From positions 16,317-80,316 of the forward strand of contig NDHY01000002.1 in the NCBI GenBank assembly GCA_003574845.1: a DNA stretch of 64,000 nucleotides. The letters run 5' to 3'. Positions within the stretch are counted from its first letter, which is position 1. Every line of letters starts with the position of its first letter. Of the stretch, positions 3,031 to 45,223 are shown piece by piece. The notes under the pieces are model-generated. The model had not been told where the DNA came from. It made no database searches and worked only from the letters and a program-made list of their open reading frames with translations. Made by a program: the position numbers and the translations under genes. The stretch comes from a candidate division NPL-UPA2 bacterium Unc8. Its GTDB lineage: Bacteria; NPL-UPA2.

Positions 3031-3667
3031 AGAAGTGGGTAAGATAGGGGAGATAAGAAAGGGAAGTGACTCTACCTTTCTTACAGTCAAGGCGTCAGGA
3101 GTGCTGAAAGACATAAAAGTTGGAGATAGTATCTTGATTAACGGGGTATGCCTCACCGTAAAGGTAGTTAATTTAGATTCATTTTCAGTTGATATTATCT
3201 CAGAAACCCTCAAAAGAACTAACTTAGCTATGCTCTCAACGGGAGAGGCGGTAAATCTGGAGCGGGCGATGAAATTAGGTGAACGGTTGGGAGGGCATCT
3301 CCTCAGCGGGCACATTGATGAGGTTGGCACCATAGAGGAAAAGAGGGGAGTGAAGGATAATTTTATCCTCAGGATTAGTGCTTCACAAAAGATAATCAGG
3401 TATATAATTCCTCAGGGCTCAATTGCCATTGATGGAGTAAGTTTAACGGTAGTTGACTGCGGCTATCACAACTTCACTGTGGCAATCATTCCTCATACTG
3501 CACAAGCTACTACATTAGGAGTAAAAAAAAATGGAGAGGCAGTCAATTTGGAGGCAGACCTCATATCAAAATATGCAGAAAAATTATTGGGAAAACAGGG
3601 TGGTAATATTACAAATGATTTTTTGATTAAGCTTGGATATCAAGCAAACCAATCGGAGACCTTTTAA
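2999..3667 (+). CDS. ribE: Riboflavin synthase alpha subunit (true start may be the GTG near 3011)
   Basis: Translation (V)[14 protein letters not shown]... is the canonical riboflavin synthase N-terminus, with two lumazine-binding repeats. Overlaps the ribD stop at 3030. Confidence 0.85.
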
Positions 3668-10305: not shown

Positions 10306-10306
10306 C

Positions 10307-10365
10307 TCTCTACTCTCTACTTATTTTGCATTTTGCATTTTTGATTTTCTTTGTGCCTCTGTGCC
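10307..10365. repeat. Modular dispersed repeat, copy 1: TCTCTACTCTCTAC + (TTTTGCA)n heptamer array + CTTTGTGCCTCTGTGCC, abutting the leuS start codon
   Basis: Direct reading. Same flanks and architecture as the copies at 46719-46783 (reverse orientation) and 55440-55522. Confidence 0.8.
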
Positions 10366-10400
10366 TTGTTTAAGTTTAATCTCACTTATTTTGATGTGGA

Positions 10401-10796
10401 TTAAAAGGATTTTTCTGCCCGGGGAGGGCCGAGAATCTCAGAGAGGACAATGCCATGACGAATTAAATCAAGATTCATCTCCTCTTTAAGTAACCTTTTC
10501 TTTTCACCAGCAATGATATCCTCTCGTGTTACCACCGGCCGTCGGCGAGGCTGTGGTGGAAAAGGGGGCTGCGGAAGGGGAACCGGCTGTGGTGGACGGG
10601 ATACCTCAGCCTTAGTTGGAGTTGGTATCACCGGTTGGGGTTGTTCCTCATCTGAGAATACTCCAAGGAGCCGTTCCAGTACCTGGTTTTTTTCTTCTCC
10701 CGGCTCTTCTTTCTCAGGTATCTTCTTCTTCGCTATAGAAGAGATTATTGAAAGAAGAATAATTATAACCCAGAAGATTAATACCAAATGTTCCAT
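10401..10796 (-). CDS. Hypothetical membrane-anchored proline-rich protein, last gene of the floA operon
   Basis: 131 aa. N-terminal transmembrane helix followed by PQPVPLPQPPFPPQP. No recognisable family. Confidence 0.4.
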   Translation of the reverse strand: MEHLVLIFWVIIILLSIISSIAKKKIPEKEEPGEEKNQVLERLLGVFSDEEQPQPVIPTPTKAEVSRPPQPVPLPQPPFPPQPRRRPVVTREDIIAGEKKRLLKEEMNLDLIRHGIVLSEILGPPRAEKSF

Positions 10797-10850
10797 TATA
10801 TCTCCTGTCTACTTCAGGTTGTTTTACCTGCAGCCTATTAGCCTAACAGT

Positions 10851-11861
10851 TTATTTACTTTTTTTCTTTTCTTCTGGGGAGATTCCAGCGATTGAGTCGC
10901 GCATTGAAGTATCAGACTGAATATTCTTCATCCGATAGTAATCTATTATTCCAAGATTTCCTTTGCGGAAAGCATCAGCTATTGCCCTGGGAACCTCTGC
11001 CTCTGCCTCAACTACTTTTGCTCTCATTTCCTGCTCTGCAGCAACTGCCATTGCCCGACGTTCTTCAGCCCTCGCCTTGGCAATCTGTAAATCAGCCTCC
11101 GCCTGCTGTTGCTGAAGCCTGGCTCCAATGTTTTCTCCGACATCAATATCGGCAATATCAATAGAGAGAATTTCAAATGCCGTTCCGGCATCAAGCCCCT
11201 TGGCAAGCACTTCTTTGGAAATCATATCAGGATTTTCCAGAATTTTCTTATGCGTCTCAGCAGAGCCAATAGTAGTAACAATCCCTTCACCAACGCGGGC
11301 GATGACTGTCTCGGTCCAGGCGCCTCCTACCAGTCGGTCAAGGTTTGCTCTGACCGTAACCCTTGCTTTTGCTCTTAATTCAATCCCATCCATTGCAATG
11401 GCAGAAACTTTTGCCATTTTCGGGTCGGCGTAGTCTTTTGGGTCCGGCGCATCAATCACCTCAGGTGTAACACTTATTCTTACTGCTTCAAGAATGTTTC
11501 TTCCTGCCAGGTCAATCGCGCAGGCGCGTTGAAATGTAAGCGGAATGTCGGCTTTGCTCGCAGAGATGAGCGCCGGGATAACTCTGAGCACTTCCTTGTG
11601 AACTATTATCTCACGGGAGCCGCCAGCCAGATAATGTGCCTCAAGATCATCGCTGGAAATATCAATTCCTGCCTTGTGAGCCATAATCATTGAATTAATG
11701 ATTACGGGCGGCGGCACACGACGCAACCTCATCGCAATAAGGTTAGTCATCCCCACCTTTACTCCTGCCGCAAGAGCAGAGATCCAGAGTTGCACTGGCA
11801 CCAACCATGTCAGGAGCAGCAAAGCAACAACTATTAAAACCGCAATTATCCACACTGTCAT
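10851..11861 (-). CDS. floA: Flotillin-like protein FloA (SPFH/band-7 domain)
   Basis: 336 aa. Near full-length similarity to Bacillus FloA/YqfA ([11 protein letters not shown]..., [15 protein letters not shown]..., [10 protein letters not shown]..., C-terminal DSIAGIS). Confidence 0.9.
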
Positions 11862-11890
11862 CTCTATCCTCCTTCCTTAAAAATTCCCCC

Positions 11891-12352
11891 CTATGTCTTC
11901 CTGACTACAACCCTATTTCCTGTGACAGCTACCACCTTTATTCGTGTGTGTTCAGGAATAAATACTCCTTCAGTAACTACATCTACTTTTTTTCCATCAA
12001 TCCTTGCTGCTCCTGCCGGGCGGAGCATTGTTATCGTCTCACCTTCTTTGTCTATTAATTCTGGATTAGCAGAGATAATATGGCTCTTATCCTGGGCGCT
12101 AAGACGAAGTTGCTTCCAACTGCTTGTCTTTGGAAAATAGAGGAAAAGAGCAATAATAACAACTATAGTAATGATAAGGGTGACTGCTCCCCATAGTGGG
12201 CTCAATCTTGTCCACGCTAAATAAGTGGCAAGCCCAAGGGTTGCCAACCCGGTAATCTCTGCCACCCCAAAGCCGGGAATGACAAAAAGCCCCACCAGCA
12301 TCAGGATAAAACCAGCAAGAAATAGCAAAATAACAATAAAATGTATTTCCAT
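11891..12352 (-). CDS. NfeD-like protein, short form (TM segments plus C-terminal OB-fold)
   Basis: 153 aa. Two to three transmembrane helices then a beta-rich C-terminus (RPAGAARIDGKKVDVVTEG) typical of YuaF/NfeD short forms. Directly upstream of floA. Confidence 0.75.
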   Translation of the reverse strand: MEIHFIVILLFLAGFILMLVGLFVIPGFGVAEITGLATLGLATYLAWTRLSPLWGAVTLIITIVVIIALFLYFPKTSSWKQLRLSAQDKSHIISANPELIDKEGETITMLRPAGAARIDGKKVDVVTEGVFIPEHTRIKVVAVTGNRVVVRKT

Positions 12353-12518
12353 TCAGGATCCTATCTTTACAAGTTAGATCGCTTCGCTCCTAACTTCCAT
12401 AGGGGCTCTCGCCCCTCTGGCGTTCCAAAAATGCCGTGATGAACATTTTTTCCACTGTCACCCCGCAGGGGAAAGCAGATTCTTTCCCCTACTACCCCTA
12501 ATCATTGTATCGGAATTT

Positions 12519-14033
12519 TTAAAATTCCGATGCAACAACAATAATTCTGTTTCCCACAACATTAATTATCTTTACTTTCTCGCCAACATTGATGAACTCT
12601 CCTTCAGTTACCACATTAAGTATGTCTTTGTCAAACTTCGCTCTTCCTGCCGGTCTGAGAATTGTCTCTGCTACTCCTTCTTTTCCTATGAGCTTCTCTT
12701 GAGTGACAGGAGTAGCGCGGTATCCAAGCTCCGAAGCCTGAGTGGGAACAAGAACAAGCCGATGTCTTACGTGCTTCCAAAGATTTGTCTGTGGTATAAA
12801 CCTTAGTGATAAAACAATGATAACAAAAGCAGCAATAAAAGAGTAGGAAATAATCTGGAGCGCTTCTATGTATTCTCTCCTTATGCCGGGAATTGGGGGA
12901 AGAGGGTCTCCAATAAGAGCAAGAAAGATACTAACAACGATTGCAATTATTCCACTGATGCCAGCGACACCAAAACCGGGAATGACGAAAATCTCAAGAG
13001 TAAGGAGTAATATCCCTCCAACAAAAAGAATAGGAATTAAAATCATTGCCCATTCTGCCATCCCTGCCAAAAACCGTCCTCCGAAGAAAAGGGCAAGGCT
13101 AACGAGTCCAATAGTTCCTCCCACTCCCCAGCCAGGAATTCTTAGCTCAAACACCAATCCTAACATCCCAAGTGTGAGCAAGAGACTACTGACGATGGGG
13201 TGGGTAAGGAAACGAACCAGATTTTCTGACCACGTAATGGTGGCTCTTGTAAGCAGGGCTTTCTCCATTCCAAAAAGTGGGGGAATATTCTCAATCTGTG
13301 CAACTTTATAATGAGCAAGCCCGAATCTGACTGCCTCATCGGCAGTAAGGGTAAGGAGCTTTCCCGCTGAAAAACCCTTTGGGATGCCTACCATTTCAAT
13401 TATTATCTCCTCTTCACCCAGCTTCTCTTTTTTCTCTACAACTTCTTCAGGAGTCAATATATAAAGTCTGCCATCAATAGTTACAGCTTTAAGCTCTATC
13501 CTTGGGTCAACCATTGCTTCAGCTAAATTCTTTGAGTGGTTGCTTTCCTCTGCCGTTGCCCTGAACTCAGCTCTTATAAAAGAGAGTGTTTTCTCATCCA
13601 TTGGTGGAGGCTCTTTTCCCTGCGGCGCAGGAGCAAAGGCAACCGGCGTGGCGGCTCCGATTGTGCTTCCTGGAGCCATCACAATCTCCTGAGTAGCAAG
13701 AGCAATGAGCGCTCCGGCAGAGATTCCACGTCTTATAAAGGCAATTGTTTTGAGTTCTGTCTCAAGGATAATATCTTTAATCTCAATGGCAGCGTCAACG
13801 CGGCCGCCAAATGTCTCAATGTCAAAAATTATTGCCGCTGCTTCTGCCTCTTCTGCCTCTCTTACAGCACGTTCAACGAAACTTGCGAGGCCAAGATCAA
13901 CTACAAAAATATGTCCATCCTGAACGGGAATGATACGGATTTCTTGTTTTTCTTCTTCGGCGGCGACAACTAACCCTGCGCAGGCAATAAGCGCTAATAA
14001 GGCAGAAATTACTTTTTTATTGCCTGACATCAT
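12519..14033 (-). CDS. NfeD family membrane-bound ClpP-class serine protease, long form
   Basis: 504 aa. Signal/transmembrane N-terminus, ClpP-like domain, multi-TM region and a C-terminal OB-fold (RPAGRAKFDKDILNVVTEG) that repeats the motif of the short paralog. Confidence 0.8.
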   Translation of the reverse strand: MMSGNKKVISALLALIACAGLVVAAEEEKQEIRIIPVQDGHIFVVDLGLASFVERAVREAEEAEAAAIIFDIETFGGRVDAAIEIKDIILETELKTIAFIRRGISAGALIALATQEIVMAPGSTIGAATPVAFAPAPQGKEPPPMDEKTLSFIRAEFRATAEESNHSKNLAEAMVDPRIELKAVTIDGRLYILTPEEVVEKKEKLGEEEIIIEMVGIPKGFSAGKLLTLTADEAVRFGLAHYKVAQIENIPPLFGMEKALLTRATITWSENLVRFLTHPIVSSLLLTLGMLGLVFELRIPGWGVGGTIGLVSLALFFGGRFLAGMAEWAMILIPILFVGGILLLTLEIFVIPGFGVAGISGIIAIVVSIFLALIGDPLPPIPGIRREYIEALQIISYSFIAAFVIIVLSLRFIPQTNLWKHVRHRLVLVPTQASELGYRATPVTQEKLIGKEGVAETILRPAGRAKFDKDILNVVTEGEFINVGEKVKIINVVGNRIIVVASEF

Positions 14034-14061
14034 AATTTTCCCTCTATTTATTTCTCTTGAT

Positions 14062-14411
14062 GGAGCTACTCATAAGCCGGGTTCTGTATAGTGGTGACTA
14101 TTTATCTGTTCATCAGATTGCTCTGATGAATCAAGCAGCCTACCCGGGGGTCAGACGGAACGGGCAATTCCTTCCCCCTTATTTGGCCTTGCTCCAGGTG
14201 GGGTTTACCATGCCCTGCCAGATCACTCCGGCAGGCGGTGAGCTCTTACCTCGCCTTTTCACCCTTACCCTTAACATCAGAGATGTCAAGTGCGGTATAT
14301 TTTCTGTGGCACTTTCCGTCAGGTCACCCTGCGTCGCCGTTAGCGACCACCTTGCCCTCTGGAGCCCGGACTTTCCTCCCGCCTAAGGCGAGCAGCCACC
14401 TGAGTAGCTCC
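14062..14411 (-). ncRNA. rnpB: RNase P RNA, bacterial type A
   Basis: Reverse complement contains near-verbatim conserved blocks of E. coli M1 RNA (GGAGGAAAGTCCGGGCTCC, GGTAAGAGCTCACC, GGTAAACCCCACCTGGAGCAAGGCCAAATAGG, CCCGGGTAGGCTGCTTG, ACAGAACCCGGCTTAT). The P1 helix is GGAGCTACTCA/TGAGTAGCTCC. The track's ORF 14057..14386 is spurious. Confidence 0.92.
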
Positions 14412-14413
14412 AA

Positions 14414-14860
14414 TTAAAGGCTTAAATCAATTGCTTTATTTGCTAACCGATCTGCTTCTTTGTTTTTTCCCCTGTCTATGCATTTGACAGTCAGCTTTTC
14501 AAATCCAGTGGAAAGATGCTTTATGAGAAGAAAAAGATTCTTCAAAAAATGATTTTTAATTTGATAGCGACCATCAACTTGCCGCACCAGAAGTTCGCTA
14601 TCGGTGTAAATTGTTAGATTTTTAGCTTTCCTGATAATCCCCTCCTGAAGCCCGTATATTACTGCAATGTACTCGGCAACGTTATTGGTGGCTTTTCCCA
14701 AGTATTGCGCCTCCTCCCATAAAACTTTTCCCTTGCTATCATAAATTATAATTCCAATCCCTGCGTTCCCTGGATTACCACGAGATGCCCCATCAACATA
14801 GATTACCAACTGCTTTTTATCCATTTTCCTTCCAGTATAGCATTCGCGAGCAGCGCTCAC
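14414..14860 (-). CDS. rnhA: Ribonuclease HI
   Basis: 148 aa. LVIYVDGASRGNPGNAGIGI is the RNase H fold DxS/G N-terminal motif. DSELLVRQ and ENKEADRLA are conserved C-terminal motifs. Confidence 0.8.
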   Translation of the reverse strand: MSAARECYTGRKMDKKQLVIYVDGASRGNPGNAGIGIIIYDSKGKVLWEEAQYLGKATNNVAEYIAVIYGLQEGIIRKAKNLTIYTDSELLVRQVDGRYQIKNHFLKNLFLLIKHLSTGFEKLTVKCIDRGKNKEADRLANKAIDLSL

Positions 14861-15527
14861 AGACGATGAGCTTATTACCCTTTATTACTTCATTCACCGT
14901 TTGATAGGGAATTTCAGTAAAGCAACCACAGCAAACGTTGCCTTCCACTGGAGTAAGTGCCATGCCTTTCTTTGCTTTTCGTATTCTCTCATAACTCTCA
15001 AGGAGTGGTTTTTCAATATTTCGGGATAGTCCTTCTCTTTTCTCTATTTCGGGCTCTCGTATTTTTTCTAACTCTTTTATCCGCTGGCAATTCTCTTCCT
15101 CTTTTCTTTTTAACCTTTCCCCATCAGCAGCTAACTTCATTTTCTCATCTTTGATGAGGTGCAGAAGCCCATCTCTTTCCTCCAAAAATGTTAGTATTTT
15201 ATCCTCAAGCTGAGAATTTTCCTGCTGAAGATTGTCTATCTCAATCATCAGAGCAGAATATTCTTTGTTGGTTTTTATTTCATGTATTTGTGAACGATAC
15301 TTGTTCAGGTCATTTTCTTTTGCCCGAAGAATCCGTTCATAATGCCGCTCCTCTTTCTCCGTCTCCTCCAATTTAGCTTCTATGCCGGCAAGGTTTTTTT
15401 TTATTTCTGCTATAATTTTTCTGAACTCCAATATATCCCCGGGAATTAAGGCTATATCTTTCTCTAACTTTTGAATCTTCATATCTATTTCTTGCAATTC
15501 AAGTAAAGACTTTATCTCTTTCTGCAT
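14817..15527 (-). CDS. C4-type zinc-ribbon / coiled-coil protein (COG1579-like)
   Basis: 236 aa. Long coiled-coil followed by CCGCF...CERCSRMLYW zinc ribbon. Overlaps the rnhA start by 44 nt. Confidence 0.65.
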   Translation of the reverse strand: MQKEIKSLLELQEIDMKIQKLEKDIALIPGDILEFRKIIAEIKKNLAGIEAKLEETEKEERHYERILRAKENDLNKYRSQIHEIKTNKEYSALMIEIDNLQQENSQLEDKILTFLEERDGLLHLIKDEKMKLAADGERLKRKEEENCQRIKELEKIREPEIEKREGLSRNIEKPLLESYERIRKAKKGMALTPVEGNVCCGCFTEIPYQTVNEVIKGNKLIVCERCSRMLYWKENG

Positions 15528-15533
15528 CTCTGT

Positions 15534-16409
15534 TCATAATCCAGCAACATCCAATACCCCCGGCACAATTTTCTCCCAGCCAATAGCCATAATATGCACC
15601 CCTTGACAGATGTCCCTCAGCTCCTTGATTAGGTTAGCAGCAATTTCTATCCCTGTCGCCGCTTTATCTTCAGCCTCAGCCATTTTGTTAATCAATTCTT
15701 CAGGGACGAAAACACCAGCCACATTTTTATTCATATATCGTGCCATACCAGCTGATTTCAAGGGTATTATTCCAACCAAGATAGGGATGCCAAATCCTTT
15801 CACCCTTTTCATAAATTTGGCGAAGGCTCCGGGCTCATAGACGGCCTGGGTTTGAAAGAACCTGGCCCCGGTTGCAATCTTTTTCTCCATCTTAATAAGC
15901 TGTAATTCAAAGGCAGCTTCACTACCCATCCCGGGATTTACTACTGCTCCAGGAAAGAAATTTGGCTTACCCTTGAGCTCATTATCAACCATATCGTAAC
16001 CTTCGTTTAACCTTTTTATGACCCACAAGAGCTGCACCGAGTCTAAGTCGAAAACTGGCTTGGCCTGGGGGTGGTCGCCGAGAGAGGGTAAATCGCCGGT
16101 GAGTGCCAGAACATTTTCAATCCCCAGGGCATAGGCACTCAACAGGTCTGATTGTAGCGCCAATCGGTTTCTATCGCGGCAGGTCATCTGTAATATCGGC
16201 TCGAGCCCGCTTTCTTTCAACAGGTGGCAGACAGCCAATGAGCCCATCCTCATCACCGAGCTTTGCTGGTCAGTAACATTGGCAGCATCCACCCTTCCCC
16301 GCAGAAGCTCAGCCACCTCCACAATCTCGGTGGTGTCGGTTCCCTTCAGCGGACCGACCTCAGCCGTCACCACAAACTTTCCTGCCTCAAGAAGTGATTG
16401 CAAACTCAT
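15534..16409 (-). CDS. metF: 5,10-methylenetetrahydrofolate reductase, short acetogen-type MetF
   Basis: 291 aa TIM-barrel MTHFR without a regulatory domain. Adjacent to metV. Confidence 0.85.
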   Translation of the reverse strand: MSLQSLLEAGKFVVTAEVGPLKGTDTTEIVEVAELLRGRVDAANVTDQQSSVMRMGSLAVCHLLKESGLEPILQMTCRDRNRLALQSDLLSAYALGIENVLALTGDLPSLGDHPQAKPVFDLDSVQLLWVIKRLNEGYDMVDNELKGKPNFFPGAVVNPGMGSEAAFELQLIKMEKKIATGARFFQTQAVYEPGAFAKFMKRVKGFGIPILVGIIPLKSAGMARYMNKNVAGVFVPEELINKMAEAEDKAATGIEIAANLIKELRDICQGVHIMAIGWEKIVPGVLDVAGL

Positions 16410-17062
16410 TTTAATCCTTCTCCTACCTTGAATGTGCGCGGTCTTTTCATCTTGGCATAATCCACCGACATAGCCATTTCTTTTAATTTATCCAACTCAC
16501 CCAGTTTCTTTAACCGATCATATATCAGTATCCAGGCACAGTCGTGCTCAGGCTCTTGCTCGCACTTATCTTCCTTAGTGCCTCCACACGGGCCATTTAA
16601 TAGTCCCTTGGAACACTGGGTCATAGGACATATGCCAGCTGTCTGCCCCAGGACACAATTTCCACATTGCATGCATATCTCAGTAAGACAGCCTGGGGTC
16701 TTTTCTTTGGCCATACATAAAGTATTTAATGCTGGATAAATACTCTTATCGGCATAGAGACTGACTGTTTGAACACCGAAGGCACAGGACATCACCAAGA
16801 TAGCGTTAGCTGCCTTGACCTTCCTGGCATTTATCTTCAGGGCATCCCCGGTAAGCTTGTCGCAAGCGGTAGGTATCATCATCCATCCGGTAACTTTTTT
16901 GCCGTCGGCTTCAAGCTTGTTTTTCATCTCCAGGACCTCGGATTTCCCGCCGGTGTGGAGCATGGTGGCACAGGTGCCACAGCCGATGATATACACTCTC
17001 TTACATTTCCCAAGACACTGCATAATTTCATCTAAAGGTTTTTGTTCTGTAATCGTTATCAT
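16406..17062 (-). CDS. metV: MTHFR small subunit MetV (MTHFR_C-type zinc-finger-like domain)
   Basis: 218 aa. Cys-rich C-terminus CTEICMQCGNCVLGQTAGICPMTQCSKGLLNGPCGG matches the MetV/MTHFR C-terminal domain. 4-nt overlap with metF. Confidence 0.8.
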   Translation of the reverse strand: MITITEQKPLDEIMQCLGKCKRVYIIGCGTCATMLHTGGKSEVLEMKNKLEADGKKVTGWMMIPTACDKLTGDALKINARKVKAANAILVMSCAFGVQTVSLYADKSIYPALNTLCMAKEKTPGCLTEICMQCGNCVLGQTAGICPMTQCSKGLLNGPCGGTKEDKCEQEPEHDCAWILIYDRLKKLGELDKLKEMAMSVDYAKMKRPRTFKVGEGLK

Positions 17063-17076
17063 ATCATTACACCACC

Positions 17077-18276
17077 TTAATTCTGTCGGATTCGGTTTTC
17101 ATAGACACTTCTAAAATACTGCAAACTATTTACTACCGGAATAGGAGCAGCTTGCCCCAGACCACATAGAGAAGAAAGCATCATGGCGCTGGCTACTTCC
17201 TCTAAAAGGCTAATGTCTGTCTCCAACCCCCCTCCCCGGGAAAACCTCTCCAGAATTTCAACCATTACTTCGGTCCCTTCTCGGCAGGGAGTGCATTTGC
17301 CGCAACATTCTTCAGCTAAAAACTCCATGACTCTATAGACGATATCTATTATGTCCCTGGTCTCATTAAATACAATGATGGCTCCCGCCCCAAGAATACT
17401 TTCAAAGGCAAGGGGCATATCTATCATCTCATAGGGTATAATTCTTCCCGTGGCACCACCCACCTGAACCATTTTAACCTTCTCGGCTAAGGCTAATCCT
17501 TCGACTAATTCCCTCAGCCGACTCCCCAGGACTAATTCATATACGCCAGGCTTTTTCACATCCCCACTCACCGAGAAAACTTTAGTGCCCTTGCTCTGCT
17601 CTGTTCCCAATTGACTAAACCAGTGACCTCCGTTAAAGATGATCTGAGGTATATTCATCAGGGTTTCTACATTATTGATAATAGTTGGTTTTCCCCACAA
17701 ACCTCTTGATGGCGGGAACGGAGGTCTATACCGAACCTCCCCCCGCTTACCTTCTATAGAATCCATTAGCGCTGACTCCTCACCACATATATAGGCGCCA
17801 GCACCTTCACGAATATCAATGTCAAATTGGTCTAAAAAACCCCCCTCTTTGGCTTGACCAATAGCATTTTTCAACAAATCAAGCAGACAATGATATTCGG
17901 CACGCAGATAGATGTAGCCCCTCTTTGCCCCAATGGCATAGCCAGCAATAGCCATAGCTTCAATCAGAGTGAACGGGTCCCTTTCCAGAATATATCTATC
18001 CTTAAATGTTCCTATCTCCCCTTCATCGGCATTGCAGATAACGTATTTCTCATCCACTTGAGCTTTTCCTGCCAACTCCCATTTCAATCCACAGGGGAAC
18101 CCAGCCCCTCCTCGACCCCGCAGCCCCGATAGCTTTATTTCGTCTATTATTTGTTCCTGAGTCACCCCAGCCAAAGCTTTTTTCAAAGCTTTAAAACCAT
18201 CCCTATCCAAATAAGTGGATATCTGCATCGGGTCGATAACCCCGCAATTTCTTAAGACAATCCGCTGCTGCGCCAT
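17077..18276 (-). CDS. NuoF-like NAD(H)-binding FMN/[4Fe-4S] subunit (51-kDa family), core form
   Basis: 399 aa. GRGGAGFPCGLKWE FMN-binding signature and a C-terminal Cys cluster (CGKCTPCREG). Confidence 0.85.
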   Translation of the reverse strand: MAQQRIVLRNCGVIDPMQISTYLDRDGFKALKKALAGVTQEQIIDEIKLSGLRGRGGAGFPCGLKWELAGKAQVDEKYVICNADEGEIGTFKDRYILERDPFTLIEAMAIAGYAIGAKRGYIYLRAEYHCLLDLLKNAIGQAKEGGFLDQFDIDIREGAGAYICGEESALMDSIEGKRGEVRYRPPFPPSRGLWGKPTIINNVETLMNIPQIIFNGGHWFSQLGTEQSKGTKVFSVSGDVKKPGVYELVLGSRLRELVEGLALAEKVKMVQVGGATGRIIPYEMIDMPLAFESILGAGAIIVFNETRDIIDIVYRVMEFLAEECCGKCTPCREGTEVMVEILERFSRGGGLETDISLLEEVASAMMLSSLCGLGQAAPIPVVNSLQYFRSVYENRIRQN

Positions 18277-18311
18277 CAGATAACCTCCTTGCCAGGGTTG
18301 TAATCAAGTTT

Positions 18312-18758
18312 TTATTTATGTGCCTTCAAAATCTGCGATATTTTGTTCGGGGTTAAATCAATATAAACTTCACTATTAATCATCATTGCCGGAGCTTTAT
18401 CGCAAACACCGATACAGTTAGTTAAATGAAAAGAGAATTTACCATTGGGAGTAGTTTCGCCGGGTTTAATCCCAATTTCTTTTTCAACGGTTTCAATTAT
18501 GACCTGCGAGTTTTTAAGAAAGCAGGGCACGCTTTTGCAAATCCTGATTATGTTCCTACCCTGTGGTCTGATTGAGAAAAAGGAGTAGAATGTGGCTACT
18601 CCATATACATCACTTATAGACATATCCAGGGATTCAGCTAGTTCAATCATAACTTTTTCAGACAGATAACCAAATTTGTTTTGTGCCTCTCCCAGCCGAA
18701 CTAATAGTTCTTTCTGTTCCTTGTTCTGCATATAAATTTCTCCATTGATTTTATTCAT
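18312..18758 (-). CDS. NuoE-like thioredoxin-fold [2Fe-2S] subunit (24-kDa family)
   Basis: 148 aa with conserved NuoE-type Cys spacing (ICKSVPCFL...NCIGVCDKAP). Confidence 0.85.
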   Translation of the reverse strand: MNKINGEIYMQNKEQKELLVRLGEAQNKFGYLSEKVMIELAESLDMSISDVYGVATFYSFFSIRPQGRNIIRICKSVPCFLKNSQVIIETVEKEIGIKPGETTPNGKFSFHLTNCIGVCDKAPAMMINSEVYIDLTPNKISQILKAHK

Positions 18759-18772
18759 TTTTCTTGTCCTGG

Positions 18773-19450
18773 TTAGCCGCTTATAATCAATGGCTCACCT
18801 TTCTTTTCTTCTCCTATTTCCCCGTGCTTGCTTAATGCACCGGTTGGGCAAAAGGAGATGCAGACATCGCAATCTCGGCAAACATCCTTATCTATTGGTT
18901 GGTCGAAATCAACCACAACCTTAGAATCAAAGCCTCGATAAGCTATGCCGAATACTTTCTCCTTTTTTATTTCATTACACGCACTTACGCATCTCCGACA
19001 TAAGATACACTTTGTTAAATCACGGACGATGAACGGACTTGCGTCTTCTACAGGATAATAACGTTTTTTCACCTGAAATCGGGGCAGCCCCACCTCTAAG
19101 TCAGTAGCAATACTGCGTAATTCACATATGTTAGCCTTATCGCACATAAAACAGTTCCCACAGTGACTGGCCAGTAAAAGCTCTACCATTGTCTTGCGGA
19201 CTTGCAAAACCTTCTTTGAATGGGTATGGATAACCATGCCCTGGGCGATTGGAGTATGGCAAGAGCCAACCAAAGTCTCGGACCTCTCTACTTCAACAAC
19301 GCAAATCCGACAAGCTCCAATAGGAGATAGTTCCTGTCTATAGCACAGAGCGGGAATATCTATACTATTTTCTTTGGCAACTTCGAGAATAGTCATCCCG
19401 GAGCTTGCGCTTAATTGACGGTCATTTATAGTTAAAGCTATCTGCTCCAT
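18773..19450 (-). CDS. NuoG N-terminal-like Fe-S protein: plant-type [2Fe-2S] + His-ligated [4Fe-4S] + two ferredoxin-type [4Fe-4S] clusters
   Basis: 225 aa. CYRQELSPIGACRIC, HCGNCFMCDKANIC, CILCRRCVSAC and CRDCDVCISFCP. Paralogous to the first ~220 aa of fdhA. Confidence 0.75.
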   Translation of the reverse strand: MEQIALTINDRQLSASSGMTILEVAKENSIDIPALCYRQELSPIGACRICVVEVERSETLVGSCHTPIAQGMVIHTHSKKVLQVRKTMVELLLASHCGNCFMCDKANICELRSIATDLEVGLPRFQVKKRYYPVEDASPFIVRDLTKCILCRRCVSACNEIKKEKVFGIAYRGFDSKVVVDFDQPIDKDVCRDCDVCISFCPTGALSKHGEIGEEKKGEPLIISG

Positions 19451-19475
19451 CTTTATATTGTACCACTTTCTGCAA

Positions 19476-20108
19476 TCACTCTGACATCTTCTCCTTCATC
19501 TTGTTAATAACATTAAGTAGCTTCCTGAGTTTATCCACCCCAGTATCTTGCAAGGTGATTACGGCATCTACATGGCCCGCGTGTCCGCATAGAGCAATTG
19601 TATAGCAAATAGTGCCATCTCTAACAATCTTCAACGCCACATCAGCATAGGGACAGTCTATTCCCACAAAGACAGAGACATCGTACTTATTGTGCCCGAT
19701 AACTAAATCGCCATGATAGGGATTAATTTCGGTGGCAGATCTCATCTTTGGATACTCGGGACGAATGTCGGTGATGGGAAGTATCTCCGCTCCTATTGCT
19801 TCTGCCAGTTCTCTTAACACCTCGGCTTTTTCTGGTGCTCCTTCTTTCCAGGGCCAGAGAATAATATACGCTGAGGTGAAAATAACGGGATTTTTAGCAT
19901 TTAGCACTTTTTCAGCAATTTTCTCTAAAGCCTCATCCTCAGAAACATCCTTTTCTTCCACCGTAGCTCTGCCTTTTCCGGGATGCGTCATCTTGGACAC
20001 CGCTTCTGGACCAAGAAGCCACCGATACCTGACCTTATCTATTTCTGCAATCACTCTGGCACCTCTTTTCCATTTACATAGGTTAAGCTTTCTCGATCCG
20101 AACGCCAC
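19476..20108 (-). CDS. Hypothetical protein in the FDH/Nuo-like cluster (start uncertain; overlaps fdhA 3' end)
   Basis: 210-aa ORF with no family recognised by eye. Sits between fdhA and the Fe-S subunit gene. Confidence 0.3.
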   Translation of the reverse strand: MAFGSRKLNLCKWKRGARVIAEIDKVRYRWLLGPEAVSKMTHPGKGRATVEEKDVSEDEALEKIAEKVLNAKNPVIFTSAYIILWPWKEGAPEKAEVLRELAEAIGAEILPITDIRPEYPKMRSATEINPYHGDLVIGHNKYDVSVFVGIDCPYADVALKIVRDGTICYTIALCGHAGHVDAVITLQDTGVDKLRKLLNVINKMKEKMSE

Positions 20109-22911
20109 AACTCTTAAGTCCGGAAGCCACCGACATGTTGCACACCGCCGGGTTCATCAGGACGTTAACCGGGGACTCGGCGAAATGGAAGCTCATACAG
20201 ACCAGACCCGGCGGAACGCGGTCGGTAAGATTTATCTTAGATTTAATTGAGCCGCGGCGGGAAGTCACTTTAACGGTATCCTCGGCATCTAACCCCAGTC
20301 CCTCTGCGTCCTGTGGATTTATTTCCATCCGCTCTTCTTTGATGAGGCTGTTCAAGCCATCGGATTTACCCGTCATGGTTCTGGTATGGTAATGGTAGAG
20401 CTTGCGTCCGGTTGTCAGGATGAAGGGATAGTCTTCATCGGTAGCATCAGCGGCCAGTGGTCGGTATTCTACAGTGGAGAACTGGCCTATGCCGCGGGCG
20501 AATTTGCTTTTGTGCAGTATGGGTGTGCCGGGATGGTCGATGGCGGTGCAGGGCCATTGGAGTCCGCCGGCATCAAGTCGCTCATAGCTCATGCCGCCAA
20601 AGTAGTGTGGTGTCAGCTCTCTTACCTCATCCCATATTTCTTCAGCAGAACTATAGTTCCAGTTAAGGCCGAACCTGTTGGCCAGTTCCTGGATGATTTC
20701 CCAGTCAGCTTTGCTGTCGCCGCGCGGTTTGATGGCACGGCGGATGAGCTGTACCCGTCTTTCTGTATTGATGAAGGTACCGTCTTTCTCGGCAAAGGAG
20801 GCTGCCGGCAAGACAACATCGGCGTATTGAGCGGTTTCGTTCAGGAAGATGTCTTGGACTACCACGAAGTCCATATCTTCTAAGGCTTCACGAACAAGTT
20901 CAGCCTGTGGGCTGGTAAGAACAGGGTTTTCTCCCATGATATACATGATGCGACTGCGCCTGTGAGGGAAATAGTGGAACATCTCAGCTATGGTGCGGCC
21001 GGGCACATCGGAGAGCTCCACTCCCCACGCCCTGGAGAACTTGGCGCGTATCGTATCGCTGACACTCATATTGAGTGATATAGGCTCATCAAACTCTATA
21101 CTTTCAATAACCGAGCTATCAGCCCCCGCCTCCTCCCGGCTGACGGCTGACGGCTGACGGCTGACGGCTCCCTTGAGCCGTTGCCAGTAGGTACCCGTGT
21201 CTCTGTCGCTGTGTACTGGCTGGTAACCGGTCAGGACGTTGGGCAGGCAACCCATATCGCAGGCGCCCTGCACGTTGTTTTGGCCGCGCAGCGGGTACAT
21301 GCCGGCATGTGGTTTACCCAGGTTGCCGGTGAGCAGGGAGAGGTTGGTTAGGGCGACGACATTTTCGGTACCGCAGGTATGCTGTGTTACGCCCATGGCG
21401 TAGAAGATGGAGCCGCTGTCAGCTTGAGCAAAGAGCCGGGCGGCGGTGATAATTTTTTCTGCCGCTACTCCGGTTATTTTGGCGACGTAGTCCGGTGTGT
21501 ATTTTTCAACCATTTTTTTTAGGTGTTGGAAATCCTGAGTGCGGGTCTCAATGTATTCCTGGTCTTGAAGCCCTTCTTTTATGATTACGTGCGCCAGAGC
21601 ATTGAAGAGGGCTATGTCTGTCCCGGGCTTGAATTGCAGGTGTACGTCGGCTATTTCTGCCAGCTGTATACGGCGCGGGTCGGCAACGATCAACTTAGCG
21701 CCATTCCTGACAGCCTGGCGTATTCTGTAACCAATAACAGGTTGACTTTCGGTGGGGTTAATGCCGGTTACTAAAATGGCCCCGGCGCCTGCTATCTCGT
21801 CAACAGTATTTGTCATTGCTCCGCTGCCTAATACGGTGGCCAGACCGACCACGGTGGGGGCATGTCAGAGGCGTGCGCAGCAATCAATACTGTTGGTGCC
21901 CAGAGAGCGCAATAACTTCTGGAAGAGGTAGTTTTCCTCGTTGGTTACCCTGGCTGAACTTAACCCGGCCAGGGCTTCGGGACCGTACTTCTCCTGCGCT
22001 TCCTTAAATTTGGCTGTCACCAGGTCGAGGGCTTCATCCCAGGTGGCTTCCACAAAGACACCGTTGCGCTTAATCAGAGGGGTGGTTAAGCGATCAGGAT
22101 GATTGACAAAGTCATAGCTAAAGCGCCCTTTCACGCAGAGCTGCCCTTTATTGACGACACTATCACGGTCGCCGCGGGCAGAGACTATTTTGTCTCCGCG
22201 TATGCCTAGATAAATCCCGCAACCGGTACCGCAGTAGGGACAGATACTCTTCACTTCACGCTCTGGCTTCCGCATATTTTGGGGGACTAAGGCGCCCACC
22301 GGACATCTCACAACACACTCTCCACAGGACTCACATCTGGATTCTACAATGGGTTTGTCCTTGAGGGTGCTGATTCTGGTATCAAGTCCCCGAAAGGCAA
22401 AGTCGATCGCACCGACTCCGTTAATCTCTTCACAGGTCCGCACGCAGATGCCACACAGAACACACTTATTGGGATCACGGATGAAGAAGGGATTTGAGTC
22501 ATCAAGGGGAAGGTCTCGGGCAGTTCGCTTCAAGCGCTGAAGACGTCCTTCCTCGATGCCGATATAGGCGGCGATATCCTGAAGCTTGCAATCCGTGTTC
22601 CGGGCACACTGGAGACACTCGGAGTAATGGTTTACGATGAGCAGTTCAGCGGCGACTCGACGCATCTTATCTATCTCCGGACCTTCCGTCCGCACCGCTA
22701 TCCCCTCCTCAACCGGCGCCTTACAGGAAATGGTGAGACCCCTTCCCTCGATCTCAACGACGCACAGACGGCACCCTCCGAAGGGCTTTAAGTCGGGGTG
22801 ATAGCAGAGATGCGGGATATAGATGCCATGATCGAGTGCCGCTTGAAGTATGGTATCCTCTTTGTTCGCCATAACCTCTAAGTCATCCAGCTTAAGAACA
22901 ACCTTATCCAT
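20083..22911 (-). CDS. fdhA: Formate dehydrogenase catalytic subunit (molybdo/tungstopterin, NuoG-like N-terminus), selenocysteine-containing; TGA at 21865-21867 is read through
   Basis: Track ORFs 21865..22950 and 20083..21852 are in the same frame, separated only by TGA. The junction reads [33 protein letters not shown], the canonical Sec active-site motif of FdhF/FdhA. An fdhF-like SECIS hairpin sits 12 nt downstream. The likely start is the ATG at 22911, overlapping the upstream NuoF-like stop as ATGGATAA. Confidence 0.85.
21138..21165. repeat. (GGCTGAC)x4 heptanucleotide tandem repeat inside the fdhA coding sequence
   Basis: Direct reading. Encodes the low-complexity segment GAVSRQPSAVSREE. 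The unit length is not a multiple of 3. Confidence 0.9.
21836..21852 (-). promoter_or_regulatory. Candidate SECIS element: hairpin GUGGUC-GGUCU-GGCCAC starting 12 nt 3' of the UGA
   Basis: 6-bp stem (one G-U pair) with the apical loop GGUCU, the same loop sequence and spacing as the E. coli fdhF SECIS. Confidence 0.55.
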
Positions 22912-24754
22912 GAATCTTAACCTCCCTTCCTGGAATAATTTCCACCGCACCGAAGCGCTCCGGGCATACGCTCAGACATACCCCGCACCTGGTGCACTTG
23001 TCCTGGTCAATTACATGAACCTCCTTCTTGCCGCCTTTGATTGCTTCGACGGGGCACTTGCGGAGGCAGATCATACAAGCCTTACATTTATCCGACACGA
23101 TAATATAGGAAATAAGCCCCTTGCACACCCTCGCTGGACACTTCTTTTCGAGGATATGGGACTCATATTCCTCGCGAAAATAACGAATGGTACTGAGGAC
23201 CGGGTTCGGTGCGCTCTGTCCCAGACCACAGATCGAGCCTATTTTAACGCTCTCACCCAGTTCAATGAGCAGGTCGATGTCCTCGATCCTGCCGTTCCCT
23301 TCCGTTATAGCGTTAAGGATCTCCAGCATTTGCACGCTTCCCAAGCGGCACAAAGAGCACTGTCCGCATGATTCCTTCTGGGTAAAGTCCAGGAAATAGC
23401 GGGCGAGATCAACCATGCAGGTATCCTCATCCACCACCACCATACCCCCGGAGCCCATCATCGAGCCAGCGGCGGTAAGCGAATCGAAATCAATGGGGGT
23501 ACCGAGCAGGCCTTCAGGCAGAACGCCCCCCGAAGGCCCCCCGGTCTGCACCGCCTTAAAAGTCCTGCCGCCGGGGACCCCTCCCCCGATGTCAAAGATA
23601 ATCTCACGAAGGGTGATTCCCATAGGCACCTCTATAAGCCCGCAGTTTGTTATCTTACCAGTCAGTGAAAAGATGGCCGTTCCTTTGCTCTTCTCAGTGC
23701 CCTGGCTGGCAAACCACTCCGCCCCTTTATTGATAATCCAGCGAATGTTGGCGAAGGTCTTAACGTTATTAAGAAGCGTAGGCCTACCCCACAATCCCAC
23801 CTCGGTGGTGCGGGGACGAGGGAGGGGCTTGGGCATTCCCCTCGCCCCCTCAAGGGAGAGAGTCAAAGCAGTGGACTCACCACAAACAAAAGCCCCTGCA
23901 CCCTGGAAAATCTCAATATCAAAACCGAATCCATTGCCTAAAACATTTTCCCCCAGAAAACCCCGCTCCCGAGCCTCGGCGATGGCAATCCCGAGACGTT
24001 TTACCGCCAGGGGATATTCCGCCCGGACGTAGACATAGCCTTTTGTCGCTCCCACGGCGTAGCCGGCAATGATCATCCCCTCTACGACTGAGTGAGGGTC
24101 GCCTTCCAGGACCGATCGGTCCTGGAAGGCCCCGGGGTCGCCTTCATCGGCATTGCAGACTACATACTTCTCGTCCCCCGGCACGCGGCGACAGGCCTCC
24201 CACTTCCGCCCGGCAGGAAAGCCGCCTCCTCCGAGTCCACGCAGCCCCGAGCGTTTTACCGCCTCGATAACCTGCTCCGGGGTCATCTCAGATAGAACCT
24301 TGCGTAGTGCTTGATAACCGCCGACGGCAAGATAGTCATCAATCTCCTCAGGGTCAATATAGCCGCAATTCTTGAGCACGGTGCGCTGCTGCTTGTTATA
24401 GAAGGTAATGTCGCGGTGATGAGGTATTGCTCTGTCAGTAACCGGATCGCGGTAGAACAGTCGCTCGATCGGCTGTCCCTGCGGCAGAAGCGACCGAGCA
24501 ATCTCCGGTGCATCGTCCACCTTGACCTCTGAGTAGAGAAGGCCCTCGGGCTCGATAATGACAACAGGATCTATTTGGCTGAAGCCACGGCAGCCGGTGT
24601 GCTTCACTTGAACGGTACCTGCCAAATCTAACCGTGCTATCTCCTCCCTCAGCGCGGCTGAAATTTGTTTGGCTCCTGCTGATATGCAGCATGTCCCCTG
24701 ACCGAGCAGGACAGTCCTAACCGGCATCTTGTCCCTCCTTTTTGGTGGAAGCAA
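22904..24754 (-). CDS. HydB/HndC/HylB-type NuoF-like subunit: N-terminal thioredoxin-like [2Fe-2S], FMN/NAD(P)H core, C-terminal 2x[4Fe-4S] ferredoxin
   Basis: 616 aa. N-terminal CxxC pair, GLGGGGFPAGRKWE, CGQCSLCRLG, then CKACMICLRKCP and CTRCGVCLSVCP. Confidence 0.85.
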   Translation of the reverse strand: MLPPKRRDKMPVRTVLLGQGTCCISAGAKQISAALREEIARLDLAGTVQVKHTGCRGFSQIDPVVIIEPEGLLYSEVKVDDAPEIARSLLPQGQPIERLFYRDPVTDRAIPHHRDITFYNKQQRTVLKNCGYIDPEEIDDYLAVGGYQALRKVLSEMTPEQVIEAVKRSGLRGLGGGGFPAGRKWEACRRVPGDEKYVVCNADEGDPGAFQDRSVLEGDPHSVVEGMIIAGYAVGATKGYVYVRAEYPLAVKRLGIAIAEARERGFLGENVLGNGFGFDIEIFQGAGAFVCGESTALTLSLEGARGMPKPLPRPRTTEVGLWGRPTLLNNVKTFANIRWIINKGAEWFASQGTEKSKGTAIFSLTGKITNCGLIEVPMGITLREIIFDIGGGVPGGRTFKAVQTGGPSGGVLPEGLLGTPIDFDSLTAAGSMMGSGGMVVVDEDTCMVDLARYFLDFTQKESCGQCSLCRLGSVQMLEILNAITEGNGRIEDIDLLIELGESVKIGSICGLGQSAPNPVLSTIRYFREEYESHILEKKCPARVCKGLISYIIVSDKCKACMICLRKCPVEAIKGGKKEVHVIDQDKCTRCGVCLSVCPERFGAVEIIPGREVKIHG

Positions 24755-25190
24755 AGATATCCGTCACCTTCTTAGGAGTCAATCGACCATGAACATCCTT
24801 GTTATTAATTATTATACAGGGCGCCAGCGCGCAACAACCAATACAGGCGACGGTTTCCAGGGTGTATTCCAGGTCGGATGTTGTCTCTCCCTCCTCCACA
24901 GCCAGTTGCCTCTTTACCTCATTGAGAATCTGTGGGGCACCTCGAACATGGCAAGCCGTTCCGCGGCAGACCATGACCCGGTTTCTGCCTATGGGGGTGA
25001 AACGAAATTGGGCATAGAAGGATGCTGCACCGAAGACTTTGCTTTCGGTTACTCCGCAAAGCTGGGCGACCTTGACCATCTCCTCTTCGGGAAGATAGCC
25101 GAATCTTTCCTGAATTTGCTGCAGAATCGGTATCAGCTTGCCTCTCCCTCTCTTATAGGATGATAAAATCTCTTTTAGACGGTCTTTCAT
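24717..25190 (-). CDS. NuoE-like [2Fe-2S] subunit (HydC/HylA-type), second copy
   Basis: 157 aa. VCRGTACHVRGA and ACIGCCALAPC are NuoE-family cysteine motifs. Confidence 0.8.
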   Translation of the reverse strand: MKDRLKEILSSYKRGRGKLIPILQQIQERFGYLPEEEMVKVAQLCGVTESKVFGAASFYAQFRFTPIGRNRVMVCRGTACHVRGAPQILNEVKRQLAVEEGETTSDLEYTLETVACIGCCALAPCIIINNKDVHGRLTPKKVTDIFASTKKEGQDAG

Positions 25191-25249
25191 AATCTTACTC
25201 CAGTTTTACCCATTACCTCTTCCTTCCCTCAGCCCGTCTTTTTCTCTTC

Positions 25250-44522: not shown

Positions 44523-44524
44523 TA

Positions 44525-45211: not shown

Positions 45212-45223
45212 TGGATCTTACTC

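Follow-up and report, generated by a model that had tools for sequence, protein, structure and literature searches.

The fdhA locus of the Unc8 contig

The window, that is, the whole 64 kb stretch of DNA analyzed here, is from Contig_2 of the NPL-UPA2 metagenome-assembled genome (MAG) Unc8. It contains a formate dehydrogenase cassette with the following features:

19476..19991, minus strand: small CdhB-like protein (PF02552), which goes with this kind of cassette
20083..22911, minus strand: fdhA reading frame, 942 codons plus stop, with the TGA read through
21805..21870, minus strand: whole SECIS match (UGA, spacer, hairpin and lower stem), 74.7 bits with covariance model R1 and 34 bits with RF01989 (21812-21870)
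21836..21852, minus strand: apical SECIS hairpin with a 6-bp stem and a GGUCU loop, placing G22, G23, U24 and C25 as counted from the U of the UGA
21865..21867, minus strand: in-frame TGA, codon 349, in the catalytic Sec/Cys column and followed by His
22904..24727, minus strand: NuoF/HydB-like flavoprotein that has two additional Fe-S domains, [2Fe-2S] at the N-terminus and 2x[4Fe-4S] at the C-terminus
24717..25190, minus strand: NuoE/HydC-like [2Fe-2S] subunit by domain matches, with a sequence that alternates between the Unc8-scaffold type and the Dehalococcoidia type

An earlier note on this DNA had described fdhA as a gene of about 942 aa, divided into two ORFs of one frame by a TGA at the Sec site of FdhF/FdhA, and coordinates, frame and alignment all bear this out. 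The ORFs 21865..22950 and 20083..21852 (minus strand) share one frame and are separated only by the TGA at 21865-21867 and four sense codons. The frame is free of other stops or frameshifts, and the joined product from the ATG at 22911 comprises 942 aa. This start codon is preceded by GGGAGG and overlaps the stop codon of the upstream NuoF-like gene as ATGGATAA, again as had been described. The protein begins with a NuoG-like Fe-S N-terminal region, followed by the Mo/W-bisPGD domains; Pfam and NCBIfam matches in the two halves comprise Molybdop_Fe4S4, Molybdopterin and Molydop_binding. Either half alone falls short of the TIGR01591 cut-off of 666 (163.8 bits for the N-terminal and 644.8 bits for the C-terminal half), which the joined FdhA would pass.

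When the joined product was aligned at the TGA, a check proposed in the earlier note, the UGA fell in the conserved Cys/Sec column of the CAR[LT]-[U/C]-H motif that is common to 120 proteins and 72 loci. Farther downstream, at residues 540-549, is the catalytic Arg motif PLRGQNNVQG. Among the 72 scorable genomic homologues, the codon in the Sec/Cys column is TGA in 47 and TGC or TGT in 25. L003 and L004, as the two nearest genomic relatives, likewise carry TGA, and the closest full-length database proteins have Cys in all cases. The closest solved structures are FdsA of R. capsulatus (6tg9_A, 1e-214) and FDH-H of E. coli (1aa6_A, 1e-175). Exact-protein look-ups with the C-terminal FdhA ORF (577 and 589 aa) and NuoF1 returned no record. 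By its domains and its active-site column, the product is a predicted Sec-containing formate dehydrogenase alpha subunit.

The selenocysteine signal

The hairpin GUGGUC-GGUCU-GGCCAC, which the earlier note had placed 12 nt downstream of the UGA and likened to the fdhF element of E. coli in its loop and in its distance from the UGA, is indeed present at 21852-21836, with a 12-nt spacer and the GGUCU loop at +22 to +26; it covaries, and the distance is the same. By the general rule for bacterial SECIS elements (PMC4605307), the stem has 6-8 bp and starts ~11-12 nt after the UGA, and a loop G some 20 nt downstream is conserved. Across the 47 TGA-type homologous loci, 281 of the 282 cells of the 6-bp stem are paired, and the GGUCU loop is kept in 45 loci. 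All six pairs are formed in 46 of the 47 TGA loci, whereas this is the case for only one of the 25 Cys-type loci. Compensatory changes were found at three stem pairs (21-33, 24-30 and 22-32; both sides change), and the observed covariation was reached by none of 500 shuffles.

Two further checks suggested in the earlier note gave mixed results. The folding energy is unremarkable (z = -1.39) and, not being significant on its own, was dropped as evidence for a SECIS. Of the model scans, the one with R1, which was built from 44 other TGA loci with the clade of the window left out, gave a single match in the 64 kb window (74.7 bits, E = 1.9e-14); the other Cys loci scored 22-54 bits. The Rfam model SECIS_3 (RF01989) matches exactly at the UGA and the hairpin (21812-21870, E = 5.9e-6, full length over model positions 1-59), but its 34 bits remain below the gathering score of 63. 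Four other TGA-type fdhA loci also stay under this score with 39-50 bits, and therefore the threshold is strict for the fdhA family; a Cys locus reached 23 bits.

Taken together, the geometry, the covariation and the restriction to TGA loci are those of a bacterial fdh-type SECIS, and the comparative evidence, which is far beyond chance, confirms that the TGA and the hairpin form a genuine fdh-type selenocysteine signal, as predicted from the sequence. The gene in the window is an ordinary Sec-type fdhA, cut into two ORFs by the gene caller and furnished with a standard fdh SECIS. According to the mechanism inferred from the fdhF system of E. coli, SelB with Sec-tRNASec would, in the true host, bind the GGUCU loop about 20 nt past the UGA, and Sec349 would be inserted as a metal ligand beside His350.

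Partner subunits

The best PDB matches of the NuoF-like subunit are bifurcating HydB and NfnB-type chains, including the B subunits of electron-bifurcating hydrogenases (7t2r_B, 2e-237; 7q4v_B), with values of only 1e-106 to 1e-113 for FdsB. FdsABG of Rhodobacter capsulatus (6tg9) has an alpha subunit of the same architecture over nearly the full length, with NuoF-like beta and NuoE-like gamma partners as in the window. However, the NuoF-like subunit of the window is nearer to the bifurcating HydB type (2e-237 versus 1e-106) and has extra Fe-S domains, and the R. capsulatus enzyme uses Cys, not Sec. The subunit make-up, with a HydB-like FMN/NADH module and a HydC-like partner, points to the HydABC/Bfu type, and the enzyme is best explained as a predicted cytoplasmic, NuoEF-linked (HydABC/Bfu-like) Mo/W formate dehydrogenase. 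Nobu et al. termed the NPL-UPA2 enzyme 'putative electron-confurcating'. The CdhB-like gene adjoins the cassette also in L004 and L092.

Selenocysteine machinery of the host

The earlier note had further claimed that the organism must carry selABCD. This was not borne out: the published Unc8 table (24 contigs, 985 CDS) contains no 'selen*' term, K01042, K03833 and K01008 are absent, and none of the 43 tRNAs of Unc8 has a Sec anticodon. The note itself had named the absence of sel genes and tRNA-Sec elsewhere in the genome as a finding that would speak against its reading. Within the window, no sel family was found among the 57 scanned ORFs and no tRNA in the 64 kb; beside the cassette in L003 and L004 there are likewise no sel genes, the neighbours being PmbA/TldD, PhoU and enoyl-CoA hydratase. 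The supplement of Nobu et al. holds nothing on sel genes in NPL-UPA2. The MAG is incomplete, with a CheckM completeness of 87.6% and without rpoB, tRNA-Gly(UCC) and tRNA-Pro(UGG), so that its unrecovered portion could contain sel genes. A genome-wide reassignment of UGA was ruled out because TGA is the ordinary stop codon of 17 of the 57 other genes of the window. Further apparent splits by in-frame TGA codons in the window turned out to be merely adjacent genes that by chance share a frame.

A mosaic of two gene types

Comparison with other assemblies revealed that the cassette alternates between sequence of Dehalococcoidia (D-type) and the allele of the NPL-UPA2 backbone (B-type). The tracts, given without regard to strand, are as follows:

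21808..24690: D-type tract, about 99.5-100% identical to Dehalococcoidia contigs
21064..21807: B-type tract, the first ~25 nt being a B-like variant
20791..21054: second D-type tract, with 36 informative sites
20390..20782: interleaved stretch, in which D-type, B-type and unique sites switch every one to three sites
19992..20389: B-type tract that runs on into the NPL-UPA2 backbone, with 158 informative sites, all but one of them B-type

Within the first D-type tract lie nuoF and the start of fdhA (~368 codons), together with the TGA and the SECIS. Over 24617-22024 the window differs from the Dehalococcoidia contig L092 by 0-5 mismatches per 150 nt, and at about 175 informative sites across 22976-21808 it is D-type; in the second D-type tract, 20993-20844 has no mismatch to L092 in 150 nt. 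The first B-type tract includes a short mixed patch at 21358-21214. The interleaved stretch (20782-20390) resembles a third allele more than a join of two contigs, a point against a simple join.

The D-type cassette adjoins secE-nusG-rplK-rplA in four assemblies (QLUN01000029, BBPD01001704, BBPE01002765 and BBPF01001667), and the adjacent L1 protein has 100% identity to a protein of a Chloroflexi MAG. Five further assemblies (L083, L092, L094, L095 and L096) have the identical TGA and hairpin. The locus does not agree with a single organism: contigs linked to the backbone bear another allele, and the TGA tract is that of Dehalococcoidia contigs. D-type sequence joined to NPL-UPA2 flanks was found in no independent assembly; every de novo contig breaks within the cassette.

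The last D-type site is 21808 and contig BBPF01002517.1 ends at window position 21809; the join between D-type and B-type sequence sits just 3' of a 41-nt SECIS stretch common to both gene types. The switches in nuoE1 coincide with N-gaps in BBPG01000467, the original scaffold, and the 5' end of nuoF on that scaffold is unlike the window. According to the methods of the Unc8 paper, gaps were cleaved, contigs extended and joined manually, and read mapping at 95% similarity supplied the consensus. Identical tracts would also be expected after a very recent natural recombination, a point against an assembly chimera.

The Cys allele on the NPL-UPA2 backbone

QLUG01000019, a contig of an independent MAG on the same NPL-UPA2 backbone, matches the window without a difference over 8772-20220. 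Its fdhA is about 10% diverged from that of the window, has TGC in place of the TGA and forms a single ORF of 943 aa; the Cys codon on this backbone is known from this one contig, and its 3' haplotype is common to seven assemblies. The Cys form, which is B-type, retains a perfect SECIS hairpin. These sequences suggest that the fdhA of NPL-UPA2 itself is probably of the Cys type and keeps a fossil SECIS, in agreement with the absence of annotated Sec machinery from the MAG.

For the window gene versus the Cys allele, dN/dS is 0.11 upstream and 0.175 downstream of the TGA, and for D-type versus B-type genes the value downstream of the UGA is 0.16. Relaxed selection on the window allele relative to the Cys allele was not seen, the derived amino-acid changes being balanced (18 versus 21 in the N-terminal and 19 versus 16 in the C-terminal part); the mosaic nature of the window gene, once recognized, deprived this test of its meaning.

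Origin of the TGA-bearing segment

We consider it likely that the Sec-FdhA segment was put into the Unc8 contig by assembly and that the native fdhA is Cys-type with a fossil SECIS. The DNA that bears the signal (window ~24690-21808) would then come from Dehalococcoidia that co-occur at The Cedars spring, and the D-type segment most likely entered the contig in gap filling and manual contig joining. The earlier interpretation as a whole is partly supported, right for the gene and not supported for the host. That UGA349 encodes Sec in NPL-UPA2 itself, with selA, selB, selC and selD in the unassembled ~5-12% of the genome, appears quite improbable: the intact frame of 942 codons, the full-quality SECIS, the dN/dS values, the balanced derived changes and the demonstrable incompleteness of the MAG would fit, but 985 CDS and 43 tRNAs lack a sel gene or tRNA-Sec, the TGA tract is ~99.5-100% identical to a Dehalococcoidia gene and halts at a contig end, TGC is found elsewhere on the same backbone, and the dN/dS values mostly reflect the history of D-type versus B-type rather than evolution within NPL-UPA2. 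The least credible reading is that the TGA arose in a Cys-type gene by nonsense mutation or by an error of sequencing, and that the gene is a pseudogene with a chance hairpin. Only one base change leads from TGC to TGA and, among database proteins of full length, the closest all have Cys, but this reading is already contradicted by the recurrence of the identical TGA and hairpin in the five independent assemblies, as well as by the TGA of the closest genomic relatives, the specificity of the hairpin for TGA loci and the frame without further stops or frameshifts.

The mosaic may also be natural, an NPL-UPA2 strain having exchanged part of nuoE-nuoF-fdhA with Dehalococcoidia DNA by homologous recombination, although we regard this as unlikely. 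The cassette is a hot spot of diversity, with variants of 84-95% identity on otherwise identical backbones and a GC content of 0.54-0.56 versus 0.36-0.49 in its neighbours; donor and recipient share one spring, and the interleaved stretch hints at extra alleles. However, the switch points match contig ends and scaffold gaps, the several alternating tracts would need several recombination events, and the D-type sequence is linked to NPL-UPA2 flanks in none of the independent assemblies. Were this cross-phylum recombination in a strain of the serpentinite spring real, for which we see little chance, a Sec codon with a perfect SECIS would have been brought into a genome of ~1 Mb without Sec machinery, and FdhA would be truncated or dependent on read-through. 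The only formate dehydrogenase of the organism would be dead or made by another reading of UGA, and the recently converted Cys allele of sister strains would indicate that selenium dependence is still being lost in a habitat poor in selenium.

Under the preferred reading of an assembly chimera, the signal was likely spliced in from Dehalococcoidia and therefore says little about the NPL-UPA2 organism. The NPL-UPA2 reference genome appears to hold ~3 kb of Dehalococcoidia sequence in its only formate dehydrogenase operon, and in two published metabolic reconstructions formate and CO2 enter the organism's metabolism through this enzyme. NPL-UPA2 probably still has a formate dehydrogenase, but one of the Cys type, and therefore no selenium requirement should be inferred. 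The practical worth of the analysis is a warning about the Unc8 reference genome, the element itself being of an ordinary kind.

Comparison with known systems

FdhA of the window resembles E. coli FdhF (FDH-H) in the Sec-His motif and the downstream Arg (RGQNNVQG), and in both genes a hairpin lies directly 3' of the UGA with a GGUC(U) loop at 22-25, counted from the U of the UGA; a search of PMC3834832 for SECIS numbering had no matches. FdhA differs from FdhF by a NuoG-like Fe-S N-terminal extension of ~215 aa and a clade-specific insertion of ~52-58 aa, and its gene is found with NuoE- and NuoF-like partners, whereas E. coli FdhF goes with hydrogenase 3. As in HydABC/Bfu-type complexes, HydB- and HydC-like subunits are encoded directly upstream of the Sec-type FdhA. 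HylABC-FdhF2 of Gottschalkia acidurici, an electron-bifurcating complex of this type, has a separate FdhF2, whereas the predicted FdhA of the window is fused to a HydA-like Fe-S N-terminus.

The fdhF-Sec and fdhF-Cys pair of Treponema primitia is similar in that closely related Sec and Cys forms occur in one habitat. Here, in contrast, the two forms belong to different organisms (Dehalococcoidia and NPL-UPA2) or are alleles on one backbone, rather than regulated paralogues of one genome, and the Cys form keeps a perfect SECIS hairpin. With its hairpin still intact, this Cys allele neatly illustrates, on a small scale, a recent switch from Sec to Cys.

The fdhA reading frame and its in-frame TGA

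The two track ORFs 21865..22950 and 20083..21852 of the minus strand lie in one frame, as confirmed by translation, and the single internal stop in the continuous translation of 20083–22950 (minus) is the TGA at 21865–21867. The start codon, ATG 22911, is preceded by GGGAGG and shares nucleotides with the stop codon of the NuoF-like gene before it (ATGGATAA); counted from this ATG, the product has 942 aa and the TGA is codon 349. The hairpin GUGGUC-GGUCU-GGCCAC at 21852–21836, 12 nt past the TGA, formed a 6-bp stem on folding. Every statement about the sequence in the earlier note, which had proposed a selenocysteine (Sec) formate dehydrogenase with a SECIS element, was thus correct.

Both halves of fdhA matched TIGR01591 (formate dehydrogenase alpha subunit family), with the 2Fe-2S, NuoG-type 4Fe-4S and Molybdop_Fe4S4 domains 5′ of the TGA and the Molybdopterin and Molydop_binding domains 3′ of it. 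The closest solved structures are R. capsulatus FdsA (6tg9_A, 1e-214), the HDCR FdhF subunit (7qv7_S) and E. coli FDH-H (1aa6_A, 1e-175). The element is an ordinary Sec-FdhA with an fdh-type SECIS, a well-known class, split by the gene caller; the published annotation of the Unc8 metagenome-assembled genome (MAG) annotates the halves as two distinct fdhA CDS, with no mention of selenocysteine. Genome-wide reassignment of UGA was ruled out, because TGA terminates 17 of 57 other genes in the window.

Comparative evidence for the Sec codon and the SECIS element

All full-length database protein homologues have Cys at the Sec/Cys column, which is expected because gene callers split Sec forms. At the level of genomic DNA, alignment placed the TGA at this conserved column, as the earlier note had anticipated, and TGA occupies it in 47 of 72 scorable homologous loci, including the two closest relatives, from Dehalococcoidia CedChl2 (L003, 75% aa identity) and Limnocylindrales (L004, 63%). 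Base pairing at the six apical pairs of the hairpin is intact in 281 of 282 cells over the 47 TGA loci, with both-sided changes at three pairs (GC/CG/UA/AU at one, CG/AU at another), a covariation that was reached by none of 500 shuffles. GGUCU is the loop sequence in 45 of the 47; that of the window fits the G22-G23-U24-C25 loop of the E. coli fdhF SECIS. Among the 25 Cys loci the hairpin columns pair fully in only one, and GGUCU is found in six. Conservation of the peptide therefore does not account for the hairpin.

Model R1, a covariance model trained on 44 TGA loci that exclude the window's own clade, scored the window hairpin at 74.7 bits, the sole match in 64 kb, compared to 22–54 bits for other Cys-type sites. 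Rfam SECIS_3 matches the exact position at 34 bits, below its gathering score of 63, as do other clear TGA loci (39–50 bits). The geometry agrees with the published rule of a 6–8 bp stem and a conserved loop G about 20 nt past the UGA (PMC4605307).

A second strong match to the SECIS model (67.4 bits) lies at 13354–13419 (minus) of locus L007, on the opposite strand from the matched Cys-type fdhA, and probably belongs to a neighboring Sec-type paralogue of the same Dehalococcoidia genome. FdhA also carries an insertion of about 52–58 aa between GYQP and IRAKFS (HSDRDTGTYWQRLK...NMSVS; residues ~567–618, window 21058–21213, minus), which is limited to the Sec and Cys forms of the closest clade (L003, L004, P0001–P0009) and missing from the ~890-aa homologues.

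Two alleles of fdhA

A pattern search recovered the window's TGA and SECIS sequence on a second contig, BBPD01001704.1 (GC 0.52–0.59), which carries hypD, hypF, a cdhB-like gene, nuoE, nuoF, fdhA (TGA), rplA and nusG. The L1 protein encoded there shares 100% identity with a protein of a Chloroflexi MAG and 90–93% with Dehalococcoidia proteins, and the arrangement with the same TGA recurs on QLUN01000029.1, BBPE01002765.1 and, in part, BBPF01001667.1. Between this Dehalococcoidia-type sequence (D-type) and the allele on the NPL-UPA2 backbone (B-type), fdhA dN/dS is 0.11 before the UGA and 0.16 after it, which indicates purifying selection on D-type fdhA on both sides, the pattern expected with read-through. 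Dehalococcoidia of The Cedars have been reported to possess glycine reductase, another selenoprotein.

The B-type allele is represented by QLUG01000019.1, which is nearly identical to window 8772–20220 (~8 mismatches in 11.4 kb) and about 10% diverged within fdhA, where codon 349 is TGC (Cys) within a single 943-aa ORF. Its 3′ part is common to seven independent assemblies, all of which run on into the NPL-UPA2 backbone. At 1151–1216 of this contig (homologous to window 21805–21870), the 41 nt after the codon are identical to the Sec-type gene, and the region just upstream is 15–20% diverged. The hairpin kept there is perfect and, at 60.8 bits, outscores all other Cys loci under R1; it represents a fossil SECIS that follows a TGC codon. 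This suggests that the Sec-to-Cys change on the backbone was recent, in agreement with a genome lacking Sec machinery.

A mosaic within the cassette

Nucleotides 24617–22024 of the window show 0–5 mismatches per 150 nt to the D-type. Judged by informative sites, the fdhA region of the window is a mosaic of both types:

22976–21808, D-type tract (~175 informative sites)
21802–21064, B-type tract
21054–20791, second D-type tract
20782–20390, finely mixed D/B stretch
20389–19992, B-type tract

The last D-type site of the first tract, 21808, lies just 3′ of the 41-nt SECIS stretch shared by both genes, an obvious overlap for contig joining, and the D-type contig BBPF01002517.1 (99.8% identical to the window) terminates at 21809. 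The switches in nuoE1 coincide with runs of N in BBPG01000467.1, the original scaffold of Unc8; the nuoF 5′ end of this scaffold is unlike that of the window, and no de novo assembly of the backbone passes through the cassette unbroken. According to the methods of the Unc8 MAG paper, scaffolds were cleaved at gaps, contig ends were extended, contigs were joined manually, and the consensus was derived from reads mapped at 95% similarity.

No de novo assembly runs through the nuoE1/nuoF 5′ region, a hot spot of micro-diversity with at least three variants (84–95% identity) on otherwise identical backbones:

24541–25200, window variant
11087–11919, variant on locus L001
10938–11168, variant on locus L002
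1–1200, variant on locus L083

A GC island (0.52–0.59; background 0.44) spans window 19900–24900 and takes in nuoF and fdhA, which have a GC content of 0.54–0.56 (GC3 0.60–0.62), their neighbors 0.36–0.49. Because the Cys allele linked to the backbone has just as high a GC content (0.536), the cassette must have been foreign to NPL-UPA2 even before any problem of assembly.

Origin of the TGA segment

The window belongs to Contig_2 of a MAG obtained from the serpentinizing springs of The Cedars, "candidate division NPL-UPA2 bacterium Unc8" (window coordinate = contig coordinate − 16316). The Sec codon and its SECIS are a real signal. From these sequence comparisons, we consider it probable that they are a property of a Dehalococcoidia fdhA, that the TGA segment most probably entered the NPL-UPA2 contig by joining during refinement, and that the native NPL-UPA2 fdhA would be the Cys allele. 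Alternatively, the segment could be a natural inter-phylum recombinant, with a Sec codon stranded in a genome without Sec machinery, which we regard as unlikely; the interleaving at 20782–20390 and the diverged nuoE/nuoF variants show that allelic diversity at the locus is real.

Slightly less likely still is a real NPL-UPA2 selenoprotein with sel genes in the unassembled fraction. The claim that the organism must carry selABCD was not borne out by the published tables: the Unc8 supplementary table (Suzuki 2018), covering all 24 contigs, contains no term starting with "selen", no K01042, K03833 or K01008, and, among 43 tRNAs, none with a Sec anticodon. However, the MAG is incomplete (CheckM completeness 87.6%), lacking rpoB, tRNA-Gly(UCC) and tRNA-Pro(UGG), so that this absence alone is not decisive and any absence there calls for caution. 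A nonsense mutation or sequencing error is very improbable, given the same TGA in five other assemblies. With joining during refinement as the preferred explanation, three results are of use: the sole formate dehydrogenase operon of this candidate-phylum reference MAG is probably a chimera, selenium dependence should not be inferred for NPL-UPA2, and the NPL-UPA2 backbone carries a Cys allele in which a fossil SECIS persists.

Operon partners and neighborhood

The two genes upstream of fdhA resemble nuoE and nuoF. The product of the latter is far closer to B subunits of electron-bifurcating hydrogenases in the PDB (7t2r_B, 2e-237) than to non-bifurcating FdsB (~1e-106 to 1e-113), which places the complex in the HydABC/Bfu type; the NPL-UPA2 enzyme was likewise named a putative electron-confurcating formate dehydrogenase by Nobu et al. 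The operon sits amid Wood-Ljungdahl genes, with folE and folD upstream and a second nuoG-N/nuoE/nuoF set, metV and metF downstream. This second set (15534–19450, minus; NuoG-N-terminal-like, NuoE-like, NuoF-like) immediately precedes metV and metF and resembles a flavin/Fe-S module for electron input to methylene-THF reductase.

A small PF02552 protein (CO dehydrogenase beta/ACS epsilon fold) is encoded beside the nuoE-nuoF-fdhA cassette in three phyla and may be an unrecognized accessory subunit:

19476–19991 (minus), window, NPL-UPA2, downstream of the cassette
8855–9451, L004, Limnocylindrales, downstream
2822–3394, BBPD01001704.1, Dehalococcoidia contig, upstream

A Moco/tungsten riboswitch (RF01055, 72 bits; 46399–46523, minus) lies ahead of ABC transporter genes (43464–46279, minus) for a periplasmic binding protein, a permease and an ATPase with TOBE domains, presumably for uptake of tungstate/molybdate for the formate dehydrogenase cofactor. 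Elsewhere in the window, a 284-aa ORF (49463–50317, plus), whose end is overlapped by the methyltransferase gene that comes next, contains an IS200-like Y1 transposase domain, and a bacterial class A RNase P RNA (302 bits; 14058–14411, minus) follows immediately 3′ of an RNase H-like gene that closes the operon.
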